Below are positions 18,925 through 38,398 of a stretch of 64,000 nt of DNA, in pieces. Numbering within the stretch: position 1 is the first letter of the stretch; every line of letters begins with the position of its first letter. The notes below the pieces were generated by a model. That model ran no database searches. It saw only the letters and a program-made list of their open reading frames with translations, and had not been told where the DNA came from. A program made the translations under genes and the position numbers. Location: assembly GCA_017460915.1 (NCBI GenBank), contig JAFUAA010000049.1, positions 18,547 through 82,546 on the forward strand, in the 5' to 3' direction. Source of the DNA: Bacteroidales bacterium (lineage in GTDB: Bacteria; Bacteroidota; Bacteroidia; Bacteroidales; F082).

Positions 18925-18990
18925 TGTTTTATAATCGCAAAAACGAATTGTACACAATTCTAAAATGAATCGTACAAAAAAAACGAAAAG
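18925..18990. repeat. Candidate transposase-binding end (R-end equivalent)
   Basis: tgtacacaattctaaaatgaatcgtacaaaaaaaacgaaaag; ACGAATTGT at about 18943..18951 recurs inverted at about 38311..38319. Confidence 0.35.
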
Positions 18991-19024
18991 TGGGCGCGTC
19001 GGATTCTCCTCGATGCGCCCACTT
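18974..19024 (-). terminator. Rho-independent terminator after the last gene of the element
   Basis: 10-bp stem aagtgggcgc / gcgcccactt, followed on the - strand by a T-run. Confidence 0.65.
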
Positions 19025-19027
19025 CGC

Positions 19028-19537
19028 TTATAAGCCCTCTTTGCGGTCGAATGTCGCGTATTTATTCTGCTGCTTCACTTCGCGTTTAAGCCCTATTTTA
19101 AGGCTGCTTAAACAGCGTTCAAGGGTGCGACAAAGGGCTGGAATTATGTCACGCTCATAGAACTGCCTCGGCTTGATTGTGTGGTCAATCTTGACTATTT
19201 CCTGCTCACAGATATTGCCCGTGTCAAGACCTTCATCAGCCCAGAACCATGTCGCAGCGGTCACGGCTTCATTCCTTTTGTAGGCCCACTTGATGGATGC
19301 CGCACCGCGTCCATACGGCAACGGTGACGGATGAAAGATGAGCGTCCCGAAGCGAGGCTCTTTGATAACATCAGTCGGGATTTTCTCCGTCAGCAATGGC
19401 GCGATGTTCAGGTCTATCTCCATGCCTGGCAGATACTCCATCGAATCATGGAACACCGTGCAACCGCATCTTTCCACGACCTCCTTCGCGGCGATATACG
19501 CCTGTGTTGTGGTCTGTCCTAATATCCTCACTAACAT
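19028..19537 (-). CDS. Formyltransferase-fold protein (catalytic domain only, 169 aa)
   Basis: LIFHPSPLPYGRGAASIKW ... ADEGLDTGNI matches the Fmt/PurN HxSLLPxxRG ... DxGxDTG core. The Asn normally two residues before the His is absent. Confidence 0.6.
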   Translation of the reverse strand: MLVRILGQTTTQAYIAAKEVVERCGCTVFHDSMEYLPGMEIDLNIAPLLTEKIPTDVIKEPRFGTLIFHPSPLPYGRGAASIKWAYKRNEAVTAATWFWADEGLDTGNICEQEIVKIDHTIKPRQFYERDIIPALCRTLERCLSSLKIGLKREVKQQNKYATFDRKEGL

Positions 19538-20670
19538 AGTTCCTGGTCTCCTATATATTCAAACCCTTGTACCGCCCTGAAATGGCCGCCAAAGCCACCG
19601 CTCCCGTGTTTCATGCCGCCATTGATTGCCGACCGGCTGAGCGTCTTGATGGACTTGCTTTTGTCGGCGAACTTCAGCGCACCGCTTACCTGCACCCATT
19701 TGGACGACTTGCGCAGGGCACGGCATAGTTGCGGATGCGAGGTGTGGAACAATGTGGTGTACTTGCGCCCACACCGCCCTTGGCCCTCAAGATGGAGCCT
19801 GCACACCTCATTCAGGAAGGCCGTGCCCACACCTATGCCCTGCCACTCTGGTAAGACTACCAAACGAGTTGCCCGATAGTGCCCGCCCTGAAACATGGGA
19901 CATACTGCCAAATGCGCCACAGGCTCGTCACCGGCAAAGCAGATGAAATACTGGGCCGCGATGGGCATGGGCAGATCTAAATAGTAATGCGGCTTAAAAT
20001 AACCCCATCGCGTTCCCGGAACCCGATAAATTGAGAGTTCGATTTCAGGTCTTTGCCGAAGGCAGTCGCGGGTGTAGAACCGCGCCTCGTTTGTGTTGTA
20101 CACCCAATCGGGTTGCAGCCACTCAATCACATCAAAGTGGGGAGTGAGCAGGACAATTTTGCCTTTGCCGCGCCTCCAGCTCTTTGCGAAGGCCGCCGCG
20201 CCTATCTTGGCAATCTGGCGGTCAATTACACTGGTAAACTCGTCCACGACCGCGATTTCAGGGTGTTCGCACACAAGGCGGGCCAGACCTGCGCGGAACT
20301 GCTCGCCATTTGAAAGCACTTTGAAGGGTCGGAGCCATGCCGGGACATCGCCAAGACCGACAGCAGACAACGCGCCGGTCACGGTGTTGAAGTCGCCATC
20401 GGGACAGATGTCGTCGATGATGGGACGGTCTTCGTGCCATCCGGCATAAAGGTCGTAGAGCGGAACGCCCGGAAACATCGCCTTTCCGATGCTGCTCTTT
20501 CCGCTTCCCGACCTCCCGACGATGAGGCCAATTTGCCAGTCCATGTTCTCGATGGGCAGTTCTGCCGCGTGCTGCCATTGGTAGCCCGTTTCGGCGTTGA
20601 ACAGGGACTTCACGCGCTCTGCCCTGTAGCTGGTGAAGTCCTCACAGGTGTGGTTGATTTCGATTCTCAT
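19531..20670 (-). CDS. ABC-type ATPase fused to a C-terminal GNAT acyltransferase domain
   Basis: Walker A GRSGSGKSS, signature-like LSNGEQ, Walker B IAVVDEF, H-loop LLTPH; C-terminal GNAT motif A (RLVVLPEWQGIGVGTAF). Confidence 0.65.
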   Translation of the reverse strand: MRIEINHTCEDFTSYRAERVKSLFNAETGYQWQHAAELPIENMDWQIGLIVGRSGSGKSSIGKAMFPGVPLYDLYAGWHEDRPIIDDICPDGDFNTVTGALSAVGLGDVPAWLRPFKVLSNGEQFRAGLARLVCEHPEIAVVDEFTSVIDRQIAKIGAAAFAKSWRRGKGKIVLLTPHFDVIEWLQPDWVYNTNEARFYTRDCLRQRPEIELSIYRVPGTRWGYFKPHYYLDLPMPIAAQYFICFAGDEPVAHLAVCPMFQGGHYRATRLVVLPEWQGIGVGTAFLNEVCRLHLEGQGRCGRKYTTLFHTSHPQLCRALRKSSKWVQVSGALKFADKSKSIKTLSRSAINGGMKHGSGGFGGHFRAVQGFEYIGDQELC

Positions 20671-20810
20671 ACCGTTACAACTTTAAGTTTTAGACCAAGG
20701 TTCAATTCCTTCAGACGATTGAACGTGTCGATCTGGTTCTGCTCGTCTGTGCACATTACCACAATGCCGTATTGCGGGTGGTAGGTGTAGCTTTTCTTCT
20801 TGTTTTCCAT
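20667..20810 (-). CDS. 47-aa ORF translationally coupled (ATGA overlap) to the ATPase-GNAT gene
   Basis: Hand translation gives MENKKKSYTYHPQYGIVVMCTDEQNQIDTFNRLKELNLGLKLKVVTV; too short for the ORF track. Confidence 0.35.
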   Translation of the reverse strand: MENKKKSYTYHPQYGIVVMCTDEQNQIDTFNRLKELNLGLKLKVVTV

Positions 20811-20872
20811 CTTTGTATGTATTAGGTTGTCTTTTTTTGTCTATTTTTGCGGTCTCCTACATTTACAAAAAT

Positions 20873-20927
20873 AAGGTGCCACAACACCGAGAGGCATACG
20901 GCCTCTGCCGTGGTGTTGTGGCACCTT
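20873..20927 (-). terminator. Long branched hairpin (16-bp outer stem, 6-bp inner stem) between the LysM gene and the modification-like module
   Basis: aaggtgccacaacacc (20873..20888) pairs with ggtgttgtggcacctt (20912..20927). Inner stem agaggc/gcctct. Short T-run follows on the - strand. Confidence 0.45.
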
Positions 20928-20990
20928 TGTCATTGTCGGGGGTAGGAGCCCGACTTTGGAGGCGGGGGCCTTTTCTATGCCCTGCCAGTT

Positions 20991-21206
20991 TTATGCTGTG
21001 GCAGGTACTACGCCGTGTTCGGCATAGTACCTCACCACTTTCTTGTTTTCCACTTCAGGAACAATGATTGTTTCGCCAGTCTTGGGTTGACTGGTCGGCA
21101 GAAGGCCGTTGAGTGCGGCCATATCAAGTGCCGCTTCTGCCGTGCCGCAATGCTGCACCGCGATGTCCCAAAGGGATTGTCCCGATTGTACAGTTATCGT
21201 CTTCAT
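20991..21206 (-). CDS. LysM-domain protein (71 aa)
   Basis: TVQSGQSLWDIAVQHCG..ALDMAALNG LysM-like pattern; its start shares one base with the stop of the upstream ORF. Confidence 0.55.
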   Translation of the reverse strand: MKTITVQSGQSLWDIAVQHCGTAEAALDMAALNGLLPTSQPKTGETIIVPEVENKKVVRYYAEHGVVPATA

Positions 21207-21439
21207 CAGCTTTGGGGGTTGTCGTCGATTGTATTTGGATCAGTCGCTTGATAGGGTGTGGCGGCCATGTACAACAAACCTGTAAGCACCGGCTCGCCCG
21301 TGGACTCGAAGGCAACCCAGCCGAAACCGGCCAGATCTTCACCGACGAATGCACCTATGTAAAGAAGGCAGGAAGGGACGTGGAGCACTTCGTCTTGAAA
21401 ACGATGTGGAAAGAGAACTTCAATTGGGCATTGGAGCAT
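21206..21439 (-). pseudogene. Possible 5'-truncated gene fragment upstream of the LysM gene
   Basis: High-GC 77-aa ORF coupled to the LysM start. Its 5' end collides with a low-GC + strand gene at about 21.40 kb. Confidence 0.25.
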
Positions 21440-21754
21440 GTCAGAGGAAATCCCGTCAGGAATCCCGGTATCGAAGAGGAAATCAACATCTCAAGACGAG
21501 GCATCAAGGAGTTCCTGAATCAAAACCATGACGATTATCTTGCAAAAAACGAAATGATTCGACACATTTCTGACATATTAAGCAAGGCCGAGTATATGGG
21601 GGAAACCATGTACAACGGTAGAGTTTCCAAGATATTCAGGACTCAGTTATGCGGCAAGGACAACTATATCATCGTGAACTATAACGACGAAGGAGAACTC
21701 AACCTGTACAGCATCACAACAAGCCCGAAAGTTCTGGTGGATATAAAGAAATAA
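21404..21754 (+). CDS. Low-GC hypothetical protein (116 aa), possibly a PBECR/barnase-like nuclease fold
   Basis: Start set at the ATG where composition drops. The C-terminal pattern KIFRTQLCGKDNYIIVNYNDEGELNLYSITT resembles small phage toxin/nuclease domains (weak, by eye). Confidence 0.3.
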   Translation: MWKENFNWALEHVRGNPVRNPGIEEEINISRRGIKEFLNQNHDDYLAKNEMIRHISDILSKAEYMGETMYNGRVSKIFRTQLCGKDNYIIVNYNDEGELNLYSITTSPKVLVDIKK

Positions 21755-21837: not shown

Positions 21838-22356
21838 ATGCAACAAAAAACTGAAAAAAAAATGACACCTGAACAATTCCAGCAGCGCATCCACGAAATG
21901 AGGGAACAGTTCGGCGAACTCTTCGACCGCTATGGCCTCATGATCGTGGGCAACGTGGCCGTCAGCTGGTTCAAGAAGAACTTCCAGAACCAGGCATGGG
22001 GCCGCATCAAGTGGAAGGAGGTGCAACGCCGCACACCTGGCACCAAGGCCAACACCTATGCCGCCAAGCACCACCCGGCCCAAACCACCCGCAAGATACT
22101 CACCGGCGACACCGGCGACCTGGGCCGATCCATCGAAATCCGTGAGGCCGCCAACGGAACTGTCACCATCTGGACAAACCCGTCCACATTCGGCTCAAAG
22201 GAACCCTACGGGCGCGTTCACAACGAGGGCCTCCGCGCAGGGCGCGGCAGCGGCTTCACCATGCCCCGCCGCCAGTTCATGGGCGAACACCCAGAACTCA
22301 ACGAACTTATTGTCAAAAAACTTGAAGAAAAACTCAATCAAATCGCACAGCAATGA
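21838..22356 (+). CDS. Virion morphogenesis / head-tail completion protein (Mu G / HK97 gp10-like)
   Basis: ILTGDTGDLGRSI ... YGRVHNEG ... MPRRQFMG pattern typical of this family. Confidence 0.55.
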   Translation: MQQKTEKKMTPEQFQQRIHEMREQFGELFDRYGLMIVGNVAVSWFKKNFQNQAWGRIKWKEVQRRTPGTKANTYAAKHHPAQTTRKILTGDTGDLGRSIEIREAANGTVTIWTNPSTFGSKEPYGRVHNEGLRAGRGSGFTMPRRQFMGEHPELNELIVKKLEEKLNQIAQQ

Positions 22357-22934
22357 TTAAATACCTCTATCTCGAACTCGAAAAGAAGCTTCTCGCCATC
22401 AACGACGAACAACCCAAGCCAAGGCCCGTGTTCAAACATTGCGACCTCTGGAACCGTCAGGTCGAGTTCCTTGAGAAGGAAACGCCCTTCCAAACGCCTG
22501 CCGTATTCGTCGAGTTCCCCAACGAAATCCAGTGGCGCACCGATGGCCAACACATTCAGGATGCCGACCTCACTATCTGCCTTCATATCGTCACACCATG
22601 GTACGCCAACACCGCAGCCGATGTGATTGACAAGAAAGTCCGCGCCATCGCGTTGGAATACCTTGACATCCCCACTGTCCTGTTCCGGCAGCTCCACGGG
22701 CAACACGGAACCGTCGAGGACAACAGCGACGACCCGCGAAACCCGAAAGTCATCGGCAACTTCAACGCCCTCACCCGTACCGCGTCCCGTGTCAACCACG
22801 ACCATGAGCGGTTTGTCGACAGCATAGAGACCTACCAATGCCACCTGAAGGATCTCTCATACAAGGTGGCCACCTTCGCCGTTGACACGGTCAACCTCGC
22901 CATCGAATTCGACCCGCATCCGGGACAATCCTAA
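22353..22934 (+). CDS. Hypothetical phage structural (neck/tail-completion-like) protein
   Basis: Start overlaps the stop of the preceding gene; no recognisable motif. Confidence 0.3.
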   Translation: MIKYLYLELEKKLLAINDEQPKPRPVFKHCDLWNRQVEFLEKETPFQTPAVFVEFPNEIQWRTDGQHIQDADLTICLHIVTPWYANTAADVIDKKVRAIALEYLDIPTVLFRQLHGQHGTVEDNSDDPRNPKVIGNFNALTRTASRVNHDHERFVDSIETYQCHLKDLSYKVATFAVDTVNLAIEFDPHPGQS

Positions 22935-24274
22935 TCCCCGGTCGTGATATACTCCATCTGGTTCGTGCTGCCCTTGAAGATGTAGCCGCATTGGTTCTCA
23001 ATCTCCATCTCTTCCAAGGGCAGCATGTTCTGTTTCCCAAAGGTCTTTTCTGCCATTGTCATAAACTCCACAATGTACATGTAGCTGCCGTGGAACTCGA
23101 AAGCCTTCATCCTTCCTGTCGGGTTGCCCTCCTCGTCCTTTTCCTCGATACCGATGAGACACTTGATCCAGTTCGGCGTTCCCTTGTTGTCGCTTTTGAT
23201 GTCATAATCATAGATAGTGAACTGTTTCCCCGCCAAGTCTTTTGGGTTCACATTGGGAGCGTCAAGGCTCCTGTTGATTCTGATTTTCTGCGTTAATTCT
23301 CTGAGTTTCATTTTCTGTTCTATTTTCTTCATTAGGTTGTAGCCGTCCGCATGGCGCAGAAGGCCGTAATAGCTCGCCCACGAGTCGTCCTTCTTGCATC
23401 GTGAGGCGCGGGCGCGTATGTTCTGACGGAGCGTCGTGTAACCCTTGTTGTGGTCGGCAACGTCCTTGTCAGGGTTACGGCGGACAATATAGCCGCAAAA
23501 CGACACCTCCTTGGTCAGCGGTTGCAGCCTGATGGCCGATGCCTTGGCCCTGATCTGCAACTTGTACCACCAGAAGTTCTGCACCCGCCATTTCAGTTGG
23601 TTGGCATCCTCCCGTGTATAGGTGGCAAAGATGCAGTCGTCAGCGTAGCGTGTCGAAAACGGTGCCGCCTGTTTGCTCCACTGGTCAAACTCAAGCATGA
23701 CAATGTGGTGCATCAGCGGCGAGGTCGGCGTTCCGATAGGCAGGCGGCCTTCCACGAAGCCTACCGTAATCCCAAACTCCACCAGTTCCCGGTCATTCGT
23801 CAGCTTGCGGAACTCTCTGCGGAAAACCTTGGGCGTGATGTGGTCGTAGCATTTCCGCTGGTCTATGATGACACAATAGTGCAGGTCGCGCCGATCATAC
23901 ACCACACGCTTCAGCCGTCGGATGACAGAGTTTTTCCTATTTGATGAGGTGATGCCGCAGCCGTGCTTGCAGTTGATGCCGTTTTTGTTGTCGTGCCAGT
24001 CGTAATATGGTTTGGCCAACAGGATGAAAAGATACTGCAAAACAAAGGTGAAAAGCAAGGGGCTGTCTATCTTGCGCTCCTTGCCGTTGGGGTTCCGCTT
24101 GGTGAGTTTCCTGTATTTGAGATGCTTTTTGTACCCGCCATTGGCTATCGATGCCATGACGGACTTGGCATAGGCTTCCGCGTTGGCCACCATGCGCTCC
24201 ACCTCTTTTTTATTGGAGTGGCCTTTGGCCGCATTGGTCATCGCGGCAAGCACTATGTCCTTTGTCACTTTCAT
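22931..24274 (-). CDS. DGR reverse transcriptase (447 aa) with C-terminal extension
   Basis: RT motifs GKERKID, VIIDQRKCYDHI, LPIGTPTSP, RYADDCIF (YADD), VSFCGYIV; lies 145 nt downstream of the TR on the same strand. Confidence 0.9.
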   Translation of the reverse strand: MKVTKDIVLAAMTNAAKGHSNKKEVERMVANAEAYAKSVMASIANGGYKKHLKYRKLTKRNPNGKERKIDSPLLFTFVLQYLFILLAKPYYDWHDNKNGINCKHGCGITSSNRKNSVIRRLKRVVYDRRDLHYCVIIDQRKCYDHITPKVFRREFRKLTNDRELVEFGITVGFVEGRLPIGTPTSPLMHHIVMLEFDQWSKQAAPFSTRYADDCIFATYTREDANQLKWRVQNFWWYKLQIRAKASAIRLQPLTKEVSFCGYIVRRNPDKDVADHNKGYTTLRQNIRARASRCKKDDSWASYYGLLRHADGYNLMKKIEQKMKLRELTQKIRINRSLDAPNVNPKDLAGKQFTIYDYDIKSDNKGTPNWIKCLIGIEEKDEEGNPTGRMKAFEFHGSYMYIVEFMTMAEKTFGKQNMLPLEEMEIENQCGYIFKGSTNQMEYITTGD

Positions 24275-24419
24275 GGCTCAAATTCAAGTTTGAGCAGTCG
24301 GCAAGCATCGGGCATCTCAGCCCAACCTTGCCACCGGCCTCCAATATCCACCGGCTGGTCTTGTATGTCTGCCGCTTCTGGGCACGGGTGACGGGCGCAT
24401 TCTTTTTCTCTTTGCTCTA

Positions 24420-24537
24420 AACTTTAGCAGAACCGCAATAGTAGCTGTTCGTATTGCCAGCGGAGTTGTTCGCATTCAGATACCGCGCCGACAGATTGCT
24501 GTTGTTCGCGTTGTTGCCTGAACGGACACCGACTCGC
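24420..24537 (-). repeat. DGR template repeat (TR), 118 bp
   Basis: Gap-free alignment to 24753..24870 with 9 mismatches, all at TR adenines (coding strand). Rich in AAC codons in the VR frame. Confidence 0.9.
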
Positions 24538-24644
24538 CCATCACCCTCGTTCCACATTAAGGGAACTTTGTCCTCGCGCCTTCAGAGGTCTCGGTCACTA
24601 TGCCGGACTTGGACGCTACGACGCGGCAAAAATAGCGTTTTTCC

Positions 24645-24683
24645 TTTTTCAAAAACAAAAAAAAACCGCCCCATAGGGCGGTT
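24645..24683 (-). terminator. Rho-independent terminator downstream of the DGR target gene
   Basis: Stem aaccgccc / gggcggtt (24664..24683), followed on the - strand by a long T-run. Confidence 0.6.
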
Positions 24684-24691
24684 GTGTGAGC

Positions 24692-24708
24692 GGGCCATTG
24701 CATGGCCC
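24692..24708 (-). promoter_or_regulatory. GC-rich hairpin just downstream of VR (candidate DGR target-recognition hairpin)
   Basis: gggccat tgc atggccc: 7-bp stem, 3-nt loop, about 45 nt 3' of the VR end. Confidence 0.35.
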
Positions 24709-24734
24709 TTGCAGCCGTTGCACGGGGTTGCACC

Positions 24735-27700
24735 CTATTGCAGTCTCCATCGAACTTGAGCAGAACCGCAAGAGTAGCTGAACGTATTGCCAGCGGAGGT
24801 GTACGCATTCAGATACCGCGCCGACAGATTGCTGTTGTACGCGTAGGTGCCTGAACGGACACCGACTCGCGTCTTCTTGCCTGCCGCGCCCCAGTTGTTT
24901 TGCACGTAGCAGTAGCCGCAATCGCCTTTCTGGTAGGATGCACCCAAGGCTGCCGGCAACGGCGTGTGGGGCAGTCGGCGACGGGCATAGCCGTTGGCCA
25001 CCGTGACAATGCTGCCCGCCAGCGCGTATTTGTCCTCGAAGGCATACTTCTCACCGATGTTGATGGCGTATCTGCTTTCATTCACCCATTGTTCCTGTTC
25101 GGGTTCCACGTACACCTTCAGCTCGTGTCCGAAGCTGCCCGATGCAGGCGAGGTCTCGCATTGGCCCACAATCTCGCAGCCACCGCCCCAATAGGGGCCG
25201 CCGTCGCCGCTCATGTCGCAGCCAAGCATCAGGCCCGTGCGGACGCAAACCTCTATCTCGTAGTCGGTCGTCTCCGTCGCGCTTGCACTGGCATAGCCCG
25301 TGAACGTGCCTGTCACAATCTTGTACACACGGCAATTCATCTCGCCATCGGCCACGGTCTTCGGCGCAAACGTGCCCGCTTGGGTCGGGTTCTCGTAACG
25401 CCATTCGTGGCCGTTGAAAAGGAAACGCTCGCCTGCCGCGATGCCGAACTCCACAGCGAACGACACCGCAATCTGGGCCTCGAGGGTCTTGCTCAGAGGG
25501 CCGTAGCTGCTCAGCCAGTTGCTCGCGTTGGTCGTGCTCTTTGTTTCGCCCGTGCCATAGTAGATGCCAGTGCTGGCCGAGAATGCACGATAGGCCCAAA
25601 CGTCCGAGCCAACGGCTTTGTAACGCATACCGCCGTTGGCTTCCCATGTGGCCTCGCTGTTGCAGGCATCGACGCTCGACACGCCGCTGCCGAATCTCGA
25701 TGCAATGCACAGGTTCTTCGTCCCAAAGGCCGTCTCCACGCAGCGAAGGAAGGTGTTCCTGGCGTGGTAGCCGCCTTCGGACACGGGCAACGGCGAAGTG
25801 GTGTCATGGTTGTTGTTGCGTGCCCTGGTCATCGTACCAATCTGGCTGATGTTGTTGGTGCGGTAGTGGCCGTTCTCGCGGAACATCCTGCATCCCGAGG
25901 CTCCGGCGTTGCCTTTGGAGTAGGTGTCGGCAGCGGGGTAGTTGAAGAAGAACGGGCGCAGTTTGTTCAAACCGTCCTCGGCGATGCTCGTCGGGGGTGA
26001 TGGGCAGATGCCCGTGGGCTTCAGCGCAAAGGTCTTCACGTCCACCCCGTCCCAAACGTTGGCGTTTGCGCCCAGAATGCCGTTCCATTCCTTGCCGCTG
26101 GAGCCAACGACGTTGTCGAGCAGGTACACTTCATCCTTGCGGCCCACGAAGACACCGTATTTAGTCTCGGTGGTCTCCCATGGCTTCAGGTAGTGGCCCA
26201 CCTCGGTGTCCACGGCCTTGTAGAGCGTCGGATGCGTCATCCGTTTCACGCTGTCCACAGTCTCGATCGAGCACAGTTTCAGGAACGCCACGGGGTCGAA
26301 AGCTCCGGCGGCGCAGTATTGCTCGGTGCAGGCCGCGTCGGTGTAGAGCGCGTTGGCCATGCACTCGTCGCGCATCGCCTCGGTGATGCCCACCACAGGC
26401 GCGAAATTGCCGTGAATGTCACGCAGCCAGTTGTTTTTCCGCAGTTCCTTGCCGGTCTTGACGGTTTCGCCATCCACGGCGGTCATGTCGACCAGCCCGG
26501 GCCGCCAATCCTCAGCCCAGTCGCGGTTGCCTATGACGGCCATTGCGTCGGGGTTGTCTTGGTCGGCGGGGCTGGCGGTGTGGGCGTTGTCGAGCCATGC
26601 GCCCACGCAGTATAGCGGCTTGGCGTACTCGCTCTCCTCAAACTGCTCCTTCAGGTCCTTGAAGGCGTTGGCCAAGGCCCTCATCGTGTCCTTGAAGCCG
26701 CGCATGTAGCTGATCACGATGGTGCCCGTGGCCTCGTTGCCTCCCACCACCTCTTCAGTGCCCATGTCGTCGGCGGGTTTGCCCGTCGGGTCGATGTTGT
26801 GTGTGCCGGTGATTGGCGTTGCCATCTGGTAGTCGACGTATTTACCTGCGAAGGCGATGGAAGGGGTGATTTGCTCCGCACTGTCGTAGACGAGCGTCAG
26901 CCCGTCGAGGGTCATGCCTTCCACGTCCGGGCGGATGAGGCCGTCGCGAAGGGCCGCGTAGGTGCCCGAGGTCGGCAACGAAGCCGTGTAGCGGTAGCCA
27001 TTTGTGGCCTCGCCTTCGCCTTCCACTATCTCGCCCTCGATTTCGGTCTCTGTCCATGTCAGGCCGGTCAGCAGCTGCTGGGCAATGTTGCGCTCGTAGG
27101 TGCCGCCACCCTCGGCATAGATGACGATGCGGTCGAAGATGCCGCCGTTGCCATGCTCAATGCCACGGAGAACGAGACAGGTCTTACCGTTGATGGTCTC
27201 CGTGTCGAACTTGCTCGTAAGGGCCGACACAGCCAAGACAAGCTCCACCGGGGCCACATATTCCTTGAACACATCGTACTCCTTGCTCCATGCCAGGTGT
27301 GCCGAAATGTCAGCCAAGGTTGCAGAGGCCGCAACCTCCACAATCATATAGCCCTCGTCGGGCAGGTAGAAGCGTTCCGTATGGCCCGCGAAGGTGTGCT
27401 CCGTCACGACGGCCACTTCACTGCCTGAAGCGGGGAGCGTGGCACAATACCACACGCCCACGATGGTACCGTCGCCCGCCTTCAGGTTGTTCCCGTTGCG
27501 GTCGGTCAGCAGGTAGCCGTTGTTCTTTTCAGCCGTGCCCCAGGCACCAGCCTCGCATTTCGGGCAGCGGATGATGCACAGCTTGTTCGTGCCGCTGCCG
27601 ATGGTGCCGTTAGCCACGGCCCCGGTCAGGTAGCCGCTCGTCTTACCGGCTGCCCATGCCTCCGGGTCGAGTTGGTTCGCACCGTTCCAACGCAGCGCGT

Positions 27701-30860: not shown

Positions 30861-31028
30861 TTATCCGAAGATTTCTGCATTGAATACCGCGTCGAGCCTC
30901 GCCAGTAGAACTTCTCTATTGCATGAGTCGCAGCATAAACCTTTGGCCACAGGCATTGCATTGTTGCCAAATTCTTCCTTCGTTTTGCCGCATATCACGC
31001 ACTTGATGAAATGTCCCGGTGTTTTCAT
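30861..31028 (-). CDS. Small zinc-finger protein (55 aa)
   Basis: Start set at MKTPGHF..; CVIC ... CCDSC. Confidence 0.4.
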   Translation of the reverse strand: MKTPGHFIKCVICGKTKEEFGNNAMPVAKGLCCDSCNREVLLARLDAVFNAEIFG

Positions 31029-31468
31029 TGCTGGCCTCCTTTCAGTAAGTTCACAAGATCTTGAATGCAAAGTGCAATCCCGTCCAACATACCATACATC
31101 AGTTCGGGTTCAATTCTATGGCCTGGAGGAATAATGGCAATCACCTTCTTTCCGGCACCCTTCATCCATCCAGCTTCAAGGTGTGCACTTCTGCCACATG
31201 GCAAGCAAAGGACACAGATGTCGGCGGCTTTCATCGCATCAAAATCCCGGTTGAATCCGCATCGTGCATGGTCGCTCTTCAAAGCTTCCCTATACTCTCT
31301 CATGCTCCATCCTTGCCAGTTCTCGTCAATCCGGCTCCACTGGAAGCCCTCGCCGTCGTTTGGGTGCTTAAAGTCATAGACTTCATAGCCCAGCAATCGC
31401 AGTTCTTTCACAAGCGACTCCTGATGTTCGTTACGCCAGCTGCTGGCAACATATACTTTCTGTTTCAT
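31025..31468 (-). CDS. Nucleoside 2-deoxyribosyltransferase / DNPH1-like fold protein
   Basis: VYVASSW.. N-terminal strand and ..CGRSAHLEAGWMKGAGKKV pattern resembling the NDT/Rcl family. Confidence 0.4.
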   Translation of the reverse strand: MKQKVYVASSWRNEHQESLVKELRLLGYEVYDFKHPNDGEGFQWSRIDENWQGWSMREYREALKSDHARCGFNRDFDAMKAADICVLCLPCGRSAHLEAGWMKGAGKKVIAIIPPGHRIEPELMYGMLDGIALCIQDLVNLLKGGQQ

Positions 31469-31713
31469 TGCTCACCTCCTTCCTTATTCCATTCCAGGAG
31501 CAAATACGGCCCGTCGGAAATCAGTTCCGCAGCGGCCCGTTCCCGTGCAGCCTTTGTGTTGTAGGTGTTCAGTGTTTTCCAAACGAAGTCGTCGCTGTCG
31601 CAGAATCTAATCTGATAGTGAATCCCGTCCTTACACGGGTAGTCGGTCAAGCGGATAAACTTGAATCCGGCTTTCAGCAGTTTCTCTCTGCTCATTTTGT
31701 TGAGATTTGCCAT
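31465..31713 (-). CDS. Hypothetical phage protein (82 aa)
   Basis: ORF track; overlapping start/stop with neighbours. Confidence 0.4.
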   Translation of the reverse strand: MANLNKMSREKLLKAGFKFIRLTDYPCKDGIHYQIRFCDSDDFVWKTLNTYNTKAARERAAAELISDGPYLLLEWNKEGGEQ

Positions 31714-31733: not shown

Positions 31734-32363
31734 TTATTGAATAGTGTTTATTGGTGTGTGTCCGTATTTCGCCGCGCCTTCAGGCCAAACGGTGTATGGC
31801 TCGCCGCCACCGAAACGGCTCTGGGGATAGGCCCGGTAGCCCTCGACGAAAATCTTCACGAAAGCATCGTATTTCACCGAATCGGCCACGGCTCCTTTGG
31901 GATTGTGGCCGTCGGCGTGGCTTATGAAGATGAAAAGCTTCTGCCGGAATTCGTCGCGCAGCCGCTTGTATTCGTTATAGGTGAGGCCCGTGTATTGCAG
32001 TGAGTCGATGATGACCACCTTGGGCGACCGTTGTTTGCGCAACCGCTCCTTCAGGTCGTCGATGCTTTCGCCGTCGAGCAGCACGAAGTTCCGCTTCACG
32101 TCGGCAAAGCCAACGTCCTCGATGGCGTGTTGCATCGAGAGGCTCAAACCTTCCTCAAGGCTGTCGTAGGCCACTCGCACGTGCTTGGCCAACGCCTTGG
32201 CCAGCTGCAAGGCGAAACGCGTCTTACCGTTTGCCGACCCTCCCCACACGATCCAACTGCCGGTGAGTTCCACTTCGCCAAGGGCCAAGTCAAGGCCGCC
32301 GTCGAGCAGGTAGGTCTTCGTCTTGTAGTTCCGAATGTCGGTTATGGTAAGGGCGCGTTTCAT
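31734..32363 (-). CDS. RecA-superfamily P-loop ATPase (KaiC/DnaB-C-like)
   Basis: Walker A GGSANGKT, Walker B VVIIDSLQY. Confidence 0.5.
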   Translation of the reverse strand: MKRALTITDIRNYKTKTYLLDGGLDLALGEVELTGSWIVWGGSANGKTRFALQLAKALAKHVRVAYDSLEEGLSLSMQHAIEDVGFADVKRNFVLLDGESIDDLKERLRKQRSPKVVIIDSLQYTGLTYNEYKRLRDEFRQKLFIFISHADGHNPKGAVADSVKYDAFVKIFVEGYRAYPQSRFGGGEPYTVWPEGAAKYGHTPINTIQ

Positions 32364-32854
32364 CAGTTCAAGGAAAAGTTGTGTTTAAGTATGGGTAAAT
32401 CTGTCCTTGCCCTTGCAGCCGTCTGCTTGCGGCAGAATTCATTGTAAATGCGGGTCAGCTCGCCTTCAGTTATCTCGTTGAAGCTGTCACGCCCGGCAGC
32501 GCGTGTGGCGATGCTCTTGGCGTAGTCAACCGTGTATTTCACTCCGCACAGCTCGCCGTAGGCACAAATGGCCTTGATGACTCCCTTGCGCTTTTTGTCC
32601 ATGCGGTTCTGCTTGCTTTGTGGTGTGGGTTTCTCCTGTGGCTTGTGGGTATACTGCTCCAGCCTGCGGATGAGGTTCATGCACTCGATGAAGGTCAACT
32701 CGCTGGTGTGGGTGGTGCGCCCGTTGGTCTCGTCGCTCACCAGGTCGGCCACGCTGTCCTTCAGGCCGAGTTCGTTCAGGAGCCAATACAGCCTGCGGTT
32801 CTGGTTGAGGGTGCGCTTGTCGTCGGCCTGCAGTTTCGTCGGTGTGGTTCTCAT
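32363..32854 (-). CDS. GemA / Mu gp16-like regulatory protein (DUF1018-like)
   Basis: Position immediately after the MuB-like gene and a two-lobed helical sequence; weak by-eye similarity. Confidence 0.4.
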   Translation of the reverse strand: MRTTPTKLQADDKRTLNQNRRLYWLLNELGLKDSVADLVSDETNGRTTHTSELTFIECMNLIRRLEQYTHKPQEKPTPQSKQNRMDKKRKGVIKAICAYGELCGVKYTVDYAKSIATRAAGRDSFNEITEGELTRIYNEFCRKQTAARARTDLPILKHNFSLN

Positions 32855-33708
32855 TTCGCGGCCTCCTTTCCCTTCAGTATCGCGTGGATCTTGCGGCGCA
32901 CACGGCGCAGGTCGCTCTCCGAGTCATTGATCACGATGTCGATGTCCCTTGGGTCGGTCACGCCGTTGGCCTCGCACACCGCCGTGATGTCGGCTGCGCT
33001 CACGCCCTTCAGGGTGACGCACTTCCTTCCCACGCGGCTCCAGATCTCGTTGTAGCCCTTCCTGTTGGCCTTCACTCCCTTTCGGATGCGGAGCTCAAGG
33101 TGGCTCGTGGCCACCATGAGCAGGCCGCATTCGCCCTCAAGGGCATTATAAAGAGATATGAAGAAATAGAGTACCTTGTCGCTCAGTTTGTCGGCCTCGT
33201 CGAGGATGAGCAGCGGGGCTTCCTGCATCTTCAGGTAGCGCACCGCGTTAAGCATCATCTCGTTCACGCTCAGTCCGGCTGCGTCGCGGCCCATCGCCTG
33301 CATCAGCTCGTTCAGGAAGGCCTTGCGGTTCCAATATTCGTTGCAGCACAGCAAATACGTCTGCTTGTGCGCGTTGGTGTATTGCTTCAGGGCAAAGGTC
33401 TTGCCGCTGCCCGCGTCGCCCGTCACGGCCATCACAAGGGCGTTTTCCTGCACATCTTCGAGGATGCGCATCAGGGTGGTGAAGTCGCGGGTGGCCACGG
33501 CGTTCCATTTCTCTTCCTTCCAGCCGATTTGGGCCGCCACATTGCGCCACATGTCGTCCTTGATGAGTTCCCATTTTCCGTTCAGCATTTGGCTCACGGT
33601 GGCCGCGCTCACATTCTTCAACGAGTTGGCCGCCTTCGCCTGGCTTTCGTAACGCTCGCAGTAGTTGCGCAGCGCGTTCACGATTTGTTGTTTCTTGATG
33701 TCTTCCAT
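32851..33708 (-). CDS. MuB-like AAA+ transposition ATPase
   Basis: N-terminal HTH (NVSAATVSQMLNGKW), Walker A GDAGSGKTF, Walker B LLILDEADKL; directly downstream of the transposase. Confidence 0.75.
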   Translation of the reverse strand: MEDIKKQQIVNALRNYCERYESQAKAANSLKNVSAATVSQMLNGKWELIKDDMWRNVAAQIGWKEEKWNAVATRDFTTLMRILEDVQENALVMAVTGDAGSGKTFALKQYTNAHKQTYLLCCNEYWNRKAFLNELMQAMGRDAAGLSVNEMMLNAVRYLKMQEAPLLILDEADKLSDKVLYFFISLYNALEGECGLLMVATSHLELRIRKGVKANRKGYNEIWSRVGRKCVTLKGVSAADITAVCEANGVTDPRDIDIVINDSESDLRRVRRKIHAILKGKEAAK

Positions 33709-33728: not shown

Positions 33729-35678
33729 TTAGTACATGTCGTAGAAATTGTCGCCGGTCTCCTCCGCCTCCACCAGTTCGGCGTTGGCAGCCGCCAGCCT
33801 CGCCTTCGCCTTGGGCAGCTTGTGTTGGCCCCGGCTGTCGGTGATGAGCAGCTTGCTCAGGGTGGTCTGCTCCAGCAGCTCGCGGGCGCGGTCTTCCATC
33901 GGGGTGAGTTCGTCCATCAGTTCCTGCTCCTTGCGGCGGTTGAAGTCCATCACGCGCTGGAGTTCCCTTGCGTCGCCTTCCTTGCGGTCGGCCAAGGCCA
34001 TCGGCTGGATGTATTTCTCCTCAAGGGTGAACTGTAGGCTCTCGTCCTCGTTGACGGCCACGGCATAGTGGAGGTCTTCGGGGTCGTAGCGCAGCTGCCA
34101 GCGCGTCGACGGGTACTTGCGGAAGTGGGTGTCGAAGCAGTCGTAGTCCATCTTGCGGGTGCCGATGGTGCAGCGTATGCCGCACCCTTGCAGCAGGTAC
34201 CGGCGTTCGCCGGTGCTTTCCCCGAAGGCCATCAGATATTGGGCGGTCTTCAGCTCAATCAGGCCCTCGGCCTCAAATTGGGCCACATACGCGGTCTCCA
34301 GCTCGGCGCGTTCGGCCTGAATGAATCCGACGATCTGTCTCACGCAACCCTCGAAATCGGGGAACTGGTGCTTGTATTTGGTGATGTATTCCGTATTTGG
34401 CTGGAGCTCTTTGCGGCTCGTAATGCCGAAGCCGCTCCAGTTGGTCTGCATTTGGCAGTATTTCTTATTGAAATAGTTGAACCACGCCTCGATGGGCTTG
34501 GCCTTCGCATTCTTCACGCGGGCCGGTGTCACCTTGTCAGCCACGGTCTGATAGGTGGGTGTCAGGTTCTTCATGGCGAAGTGGTCGCTCTGAAGCTGGC
34601 CGACGCGGTACATGCGTCCAAACAATCGCTGCGTCTCGCGTTCTGCGTCGCGCAGGGCCTCGCGGATGAGGGCGGGGCTTTCGTTGTGGCCCACGGCAAA
34701 CCCGATGGGATAACGGCAGCATCCGTCGAGCACCACCACCATCGTCAGGCGGTTGTGGTAGGTCGTGGCACCCTTATCCGGCTTGTTCTGGTAGAGCAGC
34801 TCCACGTCCCAACCGTCCATCGTCCAGAAGAGCAGCGGGCGTGTAGGTGCGCTGCGCTTCACTTGCATTTCGCGTCCGGCACGGTATTTCTCCGCACCGT
34901 GGCGGCGGGCAAAGATGAGGTCGTCGCATTTGTCGCGCCACACCGCCACCGCCGAGGCCGTGATTTCCTTCCAGTCCATCTGCTGGGCCACCATATTATA
35001 GAGCCGGGCAACCTGCTCGTTGTCGAGGTTGCGCGGGTCTGACATGAAGGTGACAAGCATTGCCTTCTGGTTCTCGTCGGCCACCTTCGCCGCATTCTTA
35101 GATCCAGTCTGGTAGGCTTTGTGGACGAGGCTGGCGAAGCCCTCCGAGAGATAACGCTGGTATTTGCGCTCCAACGAGCGGGCGTTGGCGGGAAGGGTGT
35201 GGGGCCATTTCGTCAGGTCGAGTTCCTGCACGGCATCGCTTATCTCGTCCCAGAAGCGCGTCGCCCGGTTGCCCAGGGCCTTGCGTTTCGAGTTGCGGCC
35301 TTCGATGAGGCGGCGCACACCGTCGAGCACGATGGCGTTGGTATAGTATTCCCTCCGTTTGTCGGCGGGCAGGTGACGGTCGTCGTCAATCATGTAGTTC
35401 TCGAAATATTCAGAGGCCGTCGCCGAGTGTTCAATCAATCCCTCCAGCACATTCTGCCTGGCCTCCTTGCGAGGATCTCCGACGCGCTCCACGATGGCCC
35501 GCTTATATCGGTCGGGCATTGAGTCGTAGGCCACCAGAGCGGGTGTGTTGCGGCAGGCGCGACGCACCACTTGGATATCGCCACGCTGTCCAAGCTTTTC
35601 GTAGTTTGCCTTACTCATCACGCCCTGCTCAATCATCCATCCGGCTTCCACGGTCAGTATGTTGTTGTAGTATTCCAT
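33729..35678 (-). CDS. MuA-like DDE transposase (649 aa)
   Basis: RNase-H-like core blocks (LFWTMDGWDVE, VVVLDGCCRYPIGF, LQSDHFAMKN); size and synteny with MuB-like and Gam genes. Confidence 0.8.
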   Translation of the reverse strand: MEYYNNILTVEAGWMIEQGVMSKANYEKLGQRGDIQVVRRACRNTPALVAYDSMPDRYKRAIVERVGDPRKEARQNVLEGLIEHSATASEYFENYMIDDDRHLPADKRREYYTNAIVLDGVRRLIEGRNSKRKALGNRATRFWDEISDAVQELDLTKWPHTLPANARSLERKYQRYLSEGFASLVHKAYQTGSKNAAKVADENQKAMLVTFMSDPRNLDNEQVARLYNMVAQQMDWKEITASAVAVWRDKCDDLIFARRHGAEKYRAGREMQVKRSAPTRPLLFWTMDGWDVELLYQNKPDKGATTYHNRLTMVVVLDGCCRYPIGFAVGHNESPALIREALRDAERETQRLFGRMYRVGQLQSDHFAMKNLTPTYQTVADKVTPARVKNAKAKPIEAWFNYFNKKYCQMQTNWSGFGITSRKELQPNTEYITKYKHQFPDFEGCVRQIVGFIQAERAELETAYVAQFEAEGLIELKTAQYLMAFGESTGERRYLLQGCGIRCTIGTRKMDYDCFDTHFRKYPSTRWQLRYDPEDLHYAVAVNEDESLQFTLEEKYIQPMALADRKEGDARELQRVMDFNRRKEQELMDELTPMEDRARELLEQTTLSKLLITDSRGQHKLPKAKARLAAANAELVEAEETGDNFYDMY

Positions 35679-35697
35679 TTCTCTTGTTTTCTCTTTG

Positions 35698-35777: not shown

Positions 35778-35824
35778 TACCATCCTCGTCAGTCTTATTC
35801 TTCAGGGTAGGGGTCGTGGTCTTC

Positions 35825-36025
35825 CTACAGGTTTATTCCGTTCTGCTCGGCCTCCTCCTTTTTTGCGTCGGCAAACGACGCAGCGGCCAACACAAAGAGC
35901 ATGGCCGCCGTTCCAATATGCCACCACGCTTTGTTGGCGATGGCACCGATGATGCAGACCAGGGCAAAGGCAGCGAGGCCGAACACCTGGATCATGTCGA
36001 TAATGTAGATTAGGCTGTGTCTCAT
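35825..36025 (-). CDS. Small membrane protein (66 aa, two TM helices)
   Basis: ORF track; hydrophobic segments. Confidence 0.4.
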   Translation of the reverse strand: MRHSLIYIIDMIQVFGLAAFALVCIIGAIANKAWWHIGTAAMLFVLAAASFADAKKEEAEQNGINL

Positions 36026-36037
36026 GGCGTTCCCTCC

Positions 36038-36385
36038 TTACAGTTTGATTCTGATACCTTGTTTGTCGCTGTCGAACTCGTTGTCGGCCTTCACGATGCA
36101 GAGCGCGTCGATGGTGCAGCCCTCGGCAGCAAAGCCGTGGAGGTTTTCCATCAGGCCGGTGGAGCGGTCGATGGTGACGAAGCTCTCAACCTTGGCCTCT
36201 TTCATGGTCTGAATGAAGTCGTGGACATCGCGTCCCCACAGGTGACCGTCTTCGACGATCTCTTCCTTGCTGCGGCTGTACCACCATGTCCAGTAGGCCT
36301 CAAGTTGGCCCTCGGTGAATTTCTCACCTTGTTCAATCCGTTTTCCCATTGCCTCGAAGTAGGCATTGTCTCTGTGTTTGTTCAT
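36038..36385 (-). CDS. Hypothetical early protein (115 aa)
   Basis: ORF track; early-operon position. Confidence 0.45.
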   Translation of the reverse strand: MNKHRDNAYFEAMGKRIEQGEKFTEGQLEAYWTWWYSRSKEEIVEDGHLWGRDVHDFIQTMKEAKVESFVTIDRSTGLMENLHGFAAEGCTIDALCIVKADNEFDSDKQGIRIKL

Positions 36386-36409
36386 TTCTTCTTTCTCCTT
36401 ATTTATTGG

Positions 36410-36580: not shown

Positions 36581-36649
36581 TTTTTCTGTATATTTGTCGC
36601 CGCTTTCAAATTGAAAGACGCTGCAAATATACAAGAAATCTCGTTTAAT
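36581..36649. promoter_or_regulatory. Divergent promoter/operator region of the immunity switch
   Basis: Nested palindromes: tgtatatttg (36587..36596) / caaatataca (36624..36633), and ctttcaaattgaaag (36603..36617). Confidence 0.45.
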
Positions 36650-37048
36650 ATGCAAGAAAAATCGCTTAAAAAATCAATTGTAAAGCAAAATATTTTACAA
36701 TTTATTGAATTAAAAGGACTTACAAAATACGAATTTTACAAGAAAACTCGTATAACAAGGGGCGTTCTTGACCAAAATAATGGGATGAGCGAGGATAATA
36801 TTGCGAGATTTCTCGCCTGTTTCACGGAAATAGATGCCAATTGGCTTATCACAGGGGAAGGCTCCATGTACCGGGACACCTCCGTGATGAGCGACACCGC
36901 TCCGCCGGATCGTGACGAAGTTGTCAGGCTATTGCGCGAAAAAGTAGCCGACCAGCAGAGAATCATCGACCTTTTGGATGAGAAGCTCGAAGCTGTGATG
37001 GCGGGGGGGAACACCAACGAGGATACGGCAACCGCTGCTGCTGGCTAA
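36650..37048 (+). CDS. Phage repressor (HTH, Bacteroidota type)
   Basis: HTH (LTKYEFYKKTRITRGVLDQ) and NWLITGEGSM motif; C-terminal coiled coil; transcribed toward the element end like Mu c. Confidence 0.7.
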   Translation: MQEKSLKKSIVKQNILQFIELKGLTKYEFYKKTRITRGVLDQNNGMSEDNIARFLACFTEIDANWLITGEGSMYRDTSVMSDTAPPDRDEVVRLLREKVADQQRIIDLLDEKLEAVMAGGNTNEDTATAAAG

Positions 37049-37084
37049 CTACGCCTAAACCACACCTTAAAATAGTATCTTACA

Positions 37085-37513
37085 ATGAACATCACCTATA
37101 AAGAAAAAGACATTGTCCTCAAACTGCTATGTAGCGAAGAGATCGTCCCCGAAATTTCCATCGGAATAAGCAGGGAGGAGATCATCGAACAGTCGGGGCT
37201 TGACACACAAACCGTGGCATCTATTCTCAAGTATTTCGAGAGGAACGGATTGATTAGCGACCTCAATTATCGCCACTCGGCACCTTCATTCTCATTGGTT
37301 GTTCACCAAGAGGCATTTGATGTTCTCAACCGTGGCGGCTTTACCATGCAGGAAGAGGTGCTTCAGAAGGAAGTGCAGAAACTTCTGCTTGAGATTGAAC
37401 GACTGAAGCCGTCGGTTGGAGATAAGATAGAAACAATCTCCACCATCGCCAACAACATCGCCGGTGTCGTGGGGAGTTTTTTCGGCGGATGGAACAGCAT
37501 TAAACCGCTCTAA
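37085..37513 (+). CDS. Winged-helix + coiled-coil protein with hydrophobic C-terminus, co-oriented with the repressor
   Basis: wHTH-like SREEIIEQSGLDTQTVASILKYFERNGLI; coiled coil; C-terminal IANNIAGVVGSFFGGW. Confidence 0.5.
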   Translation: MNITYKEKDIVLKLLCSEEIVPEISIGISREEIIEQSGLDTQTVASILKYFERNGLISDLNYRHSAPSFSLVVHQEAFDVLNRGGFTMQEEVLQKEVQKLLLEIERLKPSVGDKIETISTIANNIAGVVGSFFGGWNSIKPL

Positions 37514-37882
37514 AAAATCATCCACGAAAGTCTTTACCCGACAGCCGTTCACAAGGTCAATGCCTTTGTATTGTTCAAAAAGGCGTTCCCCGTTTTGGCT
37601 GACGGTGATTTCTTGCGCTACGATCCTGCCACTGATTATGCTTTTTGCTTCGGGATCAATATAGTCTCTCTTCCTGATTTCAATGATTTCTTCGAATGCT
37701 TCCATTGCTTTTTTAGGTTAGTTTTGCGGCAAAAATACGAAAAAATCTAATAATACAACCATAAAATATTGAATAACAACAAAATACATAGATTTTTATT
37801 TGCGAAAAAACAATCATATAGGGTTCAACTCGCGTTGTTTTGCTGTATTATGTGGGTGAAGTCGAGCCTTTTTTTTTCGAGT

Positions 37883-37918
37883 TTTGTCCGCCCATTTGTC
37901 CGTCCATTTGTCCGTCCA
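37883..37918. repeat. Three perfect/near-perfect 12-bp direct repeats TTTGTCCG(C/T)CCA
   Basis: tttgtccgccca tttgtccgtcca tttgtccgtcca, in the noncoding arm of the element. Confidence 0.7.
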
Positions 37919-38264
37919 AAGCCACTTTTTTGGTAAAAAGTACCGTTGGATCTGGCATGAAAAAACGCCTTTCAAAGGGTGTTCAAAGACCCTTCAAAAG
38001 GCGTGTGTGGCGCACCATTTTCGTGGTGTCGGGGAAATGGTCTAAAAGCCTATAAAATCAAGGAATTTTGTCGTTTTTAGGTCAGAAAATTAAACCCACA
38101 GCGGCTCCAATTAAACTTTCGGCCACGAAACAGGCCCCGTTCCCCGGCATCCATTAAAGCAAAATTAAAGCATTTTGTACTTTTTAATTTTCGCTCTTTT
38201 TGTCTAACTCGCACAAAATCAACAAAAAGCATTTTTTATTTTTGTATTTTTCATTTTTATGCCC

Positions 38265-38398
38265 GTAGTTTAACTACGAATTTTGCGAATTTTACTAATT
38301 GCTGCGAAGACAATTCGTATGAATTTTGCAGCAAGCTGCACCAATTCTTACGAATAGGGAAATCGTTTTATTCGTATAATTCGTAGTTTCTTTACGCA
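38265..38398. repeat. Candidate transposase-binding end (L-end equivalent) with multiple TACGAAT / ATTCGTA motifs
   Basis: actacgaatttt, gcgaatttt, acaattcgtatgaatttt, ttacgaatagg, ttattcgtataattcgtag; ends ..tttacgca just before the lgt promoter. Confidence 0.4.

Follow-up and report, generated by a model that had tools for sequence, protein, structure and literature searches.

Among annotated genomes, the closest to the element described here is that of Elizabethkingia phage TCUEAP3 (OK632026), a phage with a MuA-like transposase. In its annotation, the early operon lies on one strand and is followed by an inverted block (a hypothetical gene, tail-S, minor head, portal, connector, TerL and TerS), after which protease, capsid, tail and a Mom-like gene are back on the first strand. 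In Bacteroidales, the hankyphage is a transposable prophage with a diversity-generating retroelement (DGR), the activity of which has been demonstrated in lysogens and increases on derepression (PMC6199706; PMC12135933). Here we analyzed a 64,000-nt stretch of DNA from a Bacteroidales bacterium (hereafter, the window; contig JAFUAA010000049.1 of assembly GCA_017460915.1, positions 18,547–82,546), in which a Mu-like, DGR-carrying prophage occupies positions 18930–38267 on the minus strand. This defective prophage is 19,338 bp long; an intact parent, identified in this work, measures 36,475 bp. An initial annotation of the window had described a half-size Mu-like element and had put forward three origins for it: a very recent internal deletion, a satellite-like element that borrows the virion of a helper, or a DGR domesticated by the host. 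Gene identities were established from the list of open reading frames (ORFs) and from Pfam and PHROGs profile searches of the interval, and the Mu-like gene order, the DGR, the module at the position of mom and the lack of virion genes that had been described were all recovered. We conclude with high confidence that the element is a defective derivative of a 36.5-kb DGR-carrying, contractile-tailed Mu-like phage of rumen-type Bacteroidales, and that it arose by a single, very recent microhomology-mediated deletion.

By exact-protein look-ups, the phage was located in several assemblies, most of which come from a single ruminant-gut study. Contig k141_697838 of assembly ERZ27256836 (527 kb, from another sample) carries a full-length prophage at the same site, between lgt and the gene of an extracytoplasmic function (ECF) sigma factor. 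Two pieces of this contig were merged and then aligned to the window. Between window positions 32356 and 21300, the parent and the window show 14 differences, all of them within the variable repeat (VR) of the DGR; between 21299 and 9531, they are 100.000% identical over 11,769 bp, 9.4 kb of which are host DNA. Apart from the VR, the two thus show no differences over ~22.8 kb. A block of 17,137 bp of the parent, located between two copies of the pentamer GGGCG, is missing in the window. The left breakpoint of the parent reads ...GAGTCCAC GGGCG GGACGG... and its right breakpoint ...GGTGGTCA GGGCG AGCCGG..., and the window junction reads ...GAGTCCAC GGGCG AGCCGG..., the sole remaining copy of the pentamer being located at 21295–21299 (CGCCC on the plus strand). 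An overlap of 13–14 bp at the junction had been estimated from relatives 91–95% identical; the exact parent supersedes this figure, as it shows only 5 bp in common. The existence of the parent at the same site bears out the first of the three origins, and the suspicion that had fallen on the region 21.2–22.9 kb proved well placed. The other suspect position, 28.2–28.3 kb, is an ordinary intergenic gap that is identical in the parent, and hence not a second deletion.

A complete morphogenesis and lysis module is present in the parent at the same site and absent from the window copy; the latter is therefore a defective derivative and not a complete phage. Family matches within the block include Portal_Mu, Phage_Mu_Gp36, CLP_protease, Amidase_2 and DUF2586. 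TerL (510 aa), TerS (an HTH_23 small terminase) and the major capsid protein (374 aa) were recognized by homology to TCUEAP3, and the sheath (phrog_907), a tube-like protein, the tape measure and the baseplate hub and wedge by PHROGs. The block also takes ~200 N-terminal codons of the LPD3 minor head gene, which is whole in the parent, and a 269-aa tail-module gene except for its last 29 codons. In the window, no capsid, portal, terminase, sheath, tape-measure or lysis family was found among the ORFs of the interval with Pfam and PHROGs, and the claim that the virion module is absent holds. The possibility that unassigned early ORFs might be hidden capsid, portal or terminase genes was also considered and rejected, since the parent has the same ORFs plus a full virion set.

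What is left of the late genes lies on both sides of the junction. Of the 269-aa distal tail-module gene of the parent, the final ~29 codons remain at 21206–21294 (minus strand), as deduced from the gene calls and the alignment to the full-length prophage, and the gene that follows it in the parent, encoding 71 aa with a faint LysM match (PF01476), is retained at 20991–21206 (minus strand). On the plus strand, positions 21300–21754 hold what the deletion left of the minor head gene (Mu F-like, LPD3 domain, PF18798), namely its C-terminal ~152 codons. The ORF of the window that contains LPD3 spans 21113–21754 and corresponds to this C-terminal stub; intact copies of the gene encode 352–363 aa, and the remnant is 99.4% identical to the intact gene of contig A. 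It is followed, also on the plus strand, by the Phage_tail_S/tail-completion gene (21838–22356; PF05069; phrog_26, 1e-14), the next-to-last gene of the inverted late operon, and by the last one, which encodes a 193-aa protein (22353–22934; phrog_6911, 1e-22) and is kept in relatives with and without a DGR. The initial annotation had noticed this pair and was right about its survival; it was not right in counting two surviving head-tail genes, as the minor head stub is a third remnant. Nor is the orientation of the pair odd: the tail-S gene has the same position and orientation in TCUEAP3 and in all relatives, this being the normal arrangement in the phage group. The peculiarity of the window lies instead in the lack of the genes expected ahead of the pair.

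The short junction is found in at least five assemblies, namely the window, SRR12529357 (a 10-kb contig), ERZ27256833 (an unbroken 289-kb contig), ERZ28654702 and SRR12529373, which were made with different assemblers and pipelines. All short copies are clonal, with at most one synonymous single-nucleotide polymorphism (SNP) outside the VR. Those for which a flank could be read are all located at the same site and share the flank on the side of the ECF sigma factor gene; the lgt-side flank is also common to all contigs, of either form, that carry the exact MuA or Lgt. Contigs of three other assemblies stop exactly at window position 21295, the last base common to both forms. Such contig ends are expected when short and full forms create a fork within one sample, so both forms probably coexist within samples.

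Copies of the same phage at other host sites were used to define the ends of the element. Contig L191 (37,110 bp) carries an identical phage copy at another insertion site and diverges exactly after ...GCGATTATA, which sets the lower boundary at 18930; contig L200, with an identical copy elsewhere, diverges exactly after ...ATGCCCGTA, which sets the upper boundary at 38267. Both positions are consistent with those of more distant relatives and replace the ends proposed earlier, 18949 and 38398. The termini read TA...TA. The flanking genes, that of the ECF sigma factor and lgt, one at each end, belong to the host. The element is abutted by the 4-bp direct repeat GTTT (18926–18929 and 38268–38271), read from the sequence as a probable, tentative target-site duplication. 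At a second insertion site, CAGC is found on both sides (L191:11743–11746 and L200:4184–4187). Both sites suggest a target duplication of 4 bp, a tentative value, the second site being a composite assembled from two samples. A search for the empty site by exact Lgt look-up returned only occupied sites or contigs that stop at the phage boundary. In L191 and L200, identical ends are joined to different flanks, that is, the same phage resides at unrelated host sites; the parent is therefore an active transposable phage. We also noted that the contig L191/L179 (ERZ28654170 scaffold_3168, 37,110 bp) holds the whole 36.5-kb phage with ~580 bp of foreign flank at the right end and, by subtraction from 37,110 bp, only ~55 bp of flank at the left end. 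This asymmetry may recall Mu-type headful-packaged DNA, although it could be due to chance.

We next consider the relatives of the phage. They were obtained from scans of genome and viral contig collections with MuA, the reverse transcriptase (RT) of the DGR and the mom-position protein, and of metagenome contigs with tail-S, and tblastn with the proteins of the window and the virion proteins of TCUEAP3 served to compare their loci. Tail-S yielded 12 metagenome loci, none identical to the window, and full-length relatives were also obtained in this way. Many relatives (MuA 72–94% identical) keep the order early operon, 86-aa gene, 105-aa gene, 1067-aa DGR target and RT. The full late block is present in all eight of the more distant DGR-bearing relatives with visible downstream DNA (L077, L079/L166, L081, L082, L084 and L085, with L008 and L080 partly visible). 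Beyond the RT, relatives show the 193-aa gene and tail-S, minor head, portal, connector, TerL and TerS, and then protease, capsid and amidase; the L166 contig, of 36,693 bp, fits a genome of ~36.5 kb. No short form like that of the window was found among the relatives compared. The initial annotation had allowed that full-length relatives might expose the copy as a unique decayed remnant, and this is largely what the comparison gave: intact relatives exist and a conserved short form was not seen, with the reservation that the copy occurs in more than one assembly.

A different deletion was observed in a related phage, represented by L065+L096 (Ga0265301_10001518/IMGVR_UViG_3300028797_004779; junction at about merged positions 1889–1903) and also by L066:3244–3291. 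The N-terminal part of its MuA is 88% identical, its minor head stub 99% and its mom-position protein 99%. At the junction, codon ~335 of MuA is fused to codon ~76 of tail-S, the join lying in an imperfect microhomology of ~15 bp (GGTGGTGCTTGRCGG). MuB, the early region, the DGR and the remainder of MuA have been lost, and the whole virion module is kept. This junction is present in two metagenomes of the Joint Genome Institute (JGI). Large internal deletions may be frequent in this group of Mu-like phages.

Apart from the deletion, parent and window differ only in the VR of the DGR. The components of the DGR lie on the minus strand: the RT (447 aa; 22931–24274), which adjoins the two repeats and matches RVT_1 (3.5e-10) and group II/retron RT models; a template repeat (TR) of 118 nt with 31 adenines (24420–24537); and the VR (24753–24870), at the 3′ end of the target gene, with nine mismatches to the TR, all nine at TR adenines. 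Four VR alleles were found among otherwise identical copies. Allele A is that of the window, a short form; allele B occurs in the unbroken short-form contigs L178 and L003 and also in the full form at the same site; allele C occurs in the full form at another site, and allele D in a contig that ends before the junction. Every difference between alleles, or between an allele and the TR, falls at a TR adenine, and 22 of the 31 adenines are used across the alleles. Over ~20.4–20.5 kb, 14 changes between L178 and the window fall in the VR, and the only other one is a synonymous SNP; 14 VR changes against none or one in 10–20 kb is the pattern of ongoing mutagenic homing. Given one deletion event and two VR alleles in short copies, at least one VR rewrite took place in a short copy, and the DGR probably kept working after the deletion, without virion genes. 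A DGR would require only the RT, the TR RNA and the VR, and the 1067-aa target is apparently still rewritten after the deletion. Such activity is not unexpected, the DGR of the hankyphage having been shown to act in lysogens (PMC12135933).

A single illegitimate recombination between the GGGCG pentamers, 17,137 bp apart, removed the head, tail and lysis block at once. The resulting copy could still repress and, on induction, transpose replicatively, since MuA, MuB and both ends are intact, and it would be unable to build virions or to lyse the cell. Functionally, it would be equivalent to a natural mini-Mu, which a co-circulating parent could in principle complement. Nothing was found that contradicts the deletion itself; some points do weigh against the wider account. 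Transposition capacity and repressor function are deduced from intact sequence only. Activity of the DGR after the deletion depends on metagenome consensus contigs, as the junction lies 3.5 kb from the VR, a distance that short reads do not bridge, and recombination with a co-resident full copy could also exchange VR alleles. Coexistence of both forms within samples is read from contig break points and not from read counts, and most samples appear to originate from a single ruminant gut study, so that they may not represent independent animals.

Other explanations of the short form were weighed against the same evidence. A chimeric contig join at the junction would be in keeping with a breakpoint that is a short repeat, GGGCG, and with samples in which both forms are seemingly present. 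However, 5 bp is far under the k-mer length of any assembler, and the junction was reproduced by different pipelines in at least five assemblies, with unbroken contigs of 289 and 10 kb among them; the misassembly that the initial annotation wished to see checked has, in our estimation, a negligible probability. A biological alternative is that the element is a satellite-like mini-Mu, which persists by using the intact phage as packaging helper and contributes a DGR-diversified receptor-binding protein of its own. A precedent that speaks for such a lifestyle is offered by engineered mini-Mu elements built in this way, for which helper Mu provides transposition and packaging; it is also favored by both ends, MuA and MuB, intact and identical to those of the parent, the retention of a variable DGR with its target, and the apparent co-occurrence of the parent in at least three samples, to judge by the contig forks at 21295. 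Against it, no conserved short lineage exists among the relatives, eight out of eight with visible downstream DNA being full length, and the short copies with a read flank are clonal and all sit at one chromosomal site with the same flank. The element shows no typical satellite adaptation; instead, dead gene stubs and an orphaned late-gene pair remain. With 0–1 substitutions relative to the parent outside the VR, the short form has no independent evolutionary history. We consider a satellite very unlikely.

Domestication of the DGR by the host, which would have shed the virion and lysis genes and retained the retroelement with its target to its own advantage, likewise accounts for part of the picture: RT, TR, VR and target have remained intact where the virion and lysis genes have been lost, short copies vary in their VR, and the short form occurs in at least five assemblies. 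Yet the potentially lethal genes of replicative transposition, MuA and MuB, and both ends are untouched, unlike the usual outcome of domestication, and too little time has passed since the deletion for selection to show. Contigs of phage size account for almost all finds of the target family, the N-terminal module of which is accompanied by a phage gene partner, and this argues for a virion protein; by inspection only, the N-terminus of the target has no evident signal peptide or lipobox. Domestication appears to us extremely unlikely. Lastly, the short form might be a mini-Mu caught at birth, coexisting with its parent, with an active DGR and perhaps mobilized in the parent's particles, or else the first step of a domestication of the DGR; we regard either as improbable.

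The target of the DGR is encoded at 24735–27938 (minus strand, 1067 aa), with the VR within its last 45 codons. No match to Pfam, PHROGs or PDB (PDB sequences searched by phmmer) was obtained for it. Residues 459–1062 (window 24735–26560) share 35.8% identity with a hypothetical protein encoded by the crAss-like phage csAssE-Sib (OR575929), a homologue that carries an annotated VR and IMH (initiation of mutagenic homing) sequence. As the C-terminal 600 residues match that protein, this DGR target module is common to a Mu-like and a crAss-like phage. A total of 91 homologues of the target were found, all with at least 62% identity, most of them on contigs of up to 40 kb and few on longer ones. 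The target is probably a virion receptor-binding protein. It is preceded by a 105-aa gene (27931–28248, minus strand) that overlaps its start by 8 nt and lies upstream of the target or of a target-like gene in relatives, including the DGR-less L007. In L007 (MuA 95% identical; L007:16840–21929), the 105-aa gene is followed by the gene of a 470-aa protein and then by other ORFs, without an RT, and only the N-terminal 228 residues of the 470-aa protein are shared with the target (33% identity). From this pattern, the N-terminal part seems to be a conserved anchoring module and the distal part to be exchangeable, in the manner of receptor-binding proteins. An AlphaFold2 model of the target, built from a 36-sequence alignment, had a mean predicted local distance difference test (pLDDT) score of 56 and was confident only at residues ~60–410; with this weak model, the best Foldseek match in the PDB was no better than E = 0.3, which left the target without a fold assignment.

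No four-helix-bundle match that could correspond to Avd was obtained with Pfam and NCBIfam in the ORFs near the cassette, small ORFs around it included, and the gaps between target, TR and RT (window 22931–24735) are too short for an avd-sized gene. At 447 aa the RT is long; its RVT_1 match starts at residue 119, leaving an N-terminal extension of ~118 residues. Avd may be absent, divergent, or replaced in its role by this extension. The whole cassette is missing in some relatives: L167 (10507–11376) and L169 (10513–11372) go directly from the 86-aa gene to the inverted block, which makes the cassette a variable insert located at the early/late boundary.

The remaining genes of the element follow an order resembling that of Mu. 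Two divergent genes on the plus strand (36650–37513) are repressor candidates, one encoding 132 aa and the other 142 aa, the latter with a weak winged-helix match (HTH_Crp_2, 2.5e-4); the divergent 132/168-aa ORF is conserved among relatives. All other genes of this region are on the minus strand. At the position of ner, a small ORF (36410–36580/36634) has a helix-turn-helix look by sequence inspection; the assignment of Ner to the 66-aa ORF at 35825–36025, proposed earlier, is not upheld, as this ORF looks like one for a small membrane protein. A DUF7698 gene (profile match) lies between them at 36038–36385. The MuA-like transposase (649 aa; 33729–35678) matches phrog_310 over residues 2–616 (1.3e-34) and gave no match in the Pfam search; in a tblastn search of GenBank phages, its best annotated relative was the MuA-like transposase of TCUEAP3, with 40.7% identity, as against 22–25% for the hankyphage and Porphyromonas phage transposases. 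It adjoins the gene of a MuB-like AAA+ transposition ATPase (32851–33708; phrog_296, 7.2e-57; AAA_22, 8.5e-19), for which the Phage-MuB_C match (4.6e-5) is just under the cut-off. They are followed by a GemA-like protein (163 aa; 32363–32854; phrog_14123, phrog_286; PF06252, 4.8e-4, a weak match under the Pfam cut-off) and an ATPase (209 aa; 31734–32363; phrog_6891, 2.9e-70), the TCUEAP3 homologue of which is located directly 3′ of MuB. A group of small early genes (75, 55 and 82 aa) together with a nucleoside deoxyribosyltransferase-like gene (31025–31468) occupies 30633–31713 (phrog_12607, 3.5e-55; phrog_34157), and Gam (183 aa; PF07352, 5.7e-36) lies at 30061–30612.

Downstream of Gam, the gene calls give four early-region genes at 28557–30061, encoding a 60-aa CxxC zinc-finger protein and proteins of 231, 158 and 63 aa, for which Pfam and PHROGs searches gave no family. 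Inside the 231-aa gene, window position 29426–29427 is the start or end point of several independent contigs (L003, L004 and L181). These breaks at 29426 suggest a second graph fork, corresponding to an early-region segment that varies among co-occurring phage variants. The early region ends with an 86-aa basic protein (28293–28553), present at the early/late boundary in nearly all relatives and, by position only, a candidate Mor/C-type late activator; family searches (Pfam, PHROGs, NCBIfam) gave no match for it. At the opposite end of the element, a 379-aa protein combining an ABC-type ATPase and a GNAT acetyltransferase (19531–20670, minus strand; phrog_11143, 8e-141; Pfam ABC_tran and Acetyltransf) occupies the position of mom. 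TCUEAP3 has an annotated Mom acetyltransferase at the matching position, and we infer a mom-type role from position only. The last gene before the right end is a formyltransferase-like gene (169 aa; 19028–19537, minus strand; PF00551, 2.7e-14; phrog_9240). When the whole element was compared by megablast with GenBank phages, the sole match was a 660-bp segment (71%) within the mom-position gene, and scans of the window with Rfam and for tRNAs gave no match inside the element. Elsewhere in the window, positions 7100–9500 form a low-GC patch (37–43% vs. ~50% around) with few long ORFs, in which two overlapping ORFs (9065–9504, minus strand) appear to be the two halves of a P-loop (zeta-toxin/AAA-like) gene broken by a frameshift; the ORFs at 6033–7134 (minus strand) have the appearance of a split radical-SAM-type gene.

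Prophage decay by deletion is routine, and our main result lowers the claim made for this element, which does not represent a new class of half-size elements. What is unusual is the availability of the exact parent at the same locus, with which the breakpoint, the 5-bp microhomology and the full list of lost genes are known without inference. Since parent and derivative differ only in the VR beyond the deletion, they also provide clean natural evidence that this DGR rewrites its target in resident prophages, probably still after virion loss. Should the short form turn out to be a nascent mini-Mu or the onset of domestication, the pair would constitute a natural experiment on whether, and for whose benefit, a DGR diversifies its target without virions. 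The analysis further outlines ~36-kb transposable phages of rumen Bacteroidales with an inverted packaging block, a variable DGR insert, a large target protein to which no fold could be given, no recognizable Avd and an apparent 4-bp duplication, a group that appears uncharacterized beyond TCUEAP3.

With TCUEAP3 (MuA 40.7% identical), these phages share the overall layout, including the inverted block, then protease, capsid and tail, and the Mom-like gene at the right end. They differ from it in that TCUEAP3 has no DGR and that its long tape measure and tail fiber have no match in the relatives studied here; the parent carries sheath, tube and baseplate genes, and the window copy lacks the whole morphogenesis block. 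Like the hankyphage (Bacteroides phage p00, BK010646), the parent is a transposable Bacteroidales prophage with a DGR. Nevertheless, the MuA proteins are only 22.6% identical, megablast found no DNA similarity, the target search found no hankyphage record, and the DGR cassette is placed here between the early region and the inverted late block; by these comparisons, the element is not a member of the hankyphage group. The DGR resembles that of Bordetella phage BPP-1 in having an RT, a TR/VR pair with adenine-specific mismatches and, as target, a large phage protein with the VR at its C-terminal end, and departs from it in its long RT (447 aa), in the lack of an Avd gene recognizable with Pfam and NCBIfam, and in a target without detectable similarity to Mtd.

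Phage satellites such as P4, PICI and PLE also lack most or all structural genes and need a helper to form particles. They are, however, conserved and independently evolving lineages with their own integration and helper-hijacking functions, whereas the window copy is a clonal, days-to-years-old deletion of its own helper, gene stubs included. With bacteriophage Mu itself, there is agreement in the early order (divergent repressor candidates, a helix-turn-helix-like small gene, MuA-like, MuB-like, GemA-like and Gam), in the parent's head module (Portal_Mu, Gp36, F-like minor head and protease), contractile tail and mom-position modification gene, and in insertion at different host sites. In contrast to Mu, the MuA of this phage is only distantly related (a PHROG profile match and no Pfam match), the packaging/head-completion block from TerS to tail-S is inverted relative to the early operon, the apparent duplication is of 4 bp with termini TA...TA instead of 5 bp with TG...CA, and a DGR is carried. 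The likeness extends to laboratory mini-Mu, as the window copy consists of both ends together with A and B and is devoid of morphogenesis genes; unlike those constructs, the deletion from which it derives arose naturally.

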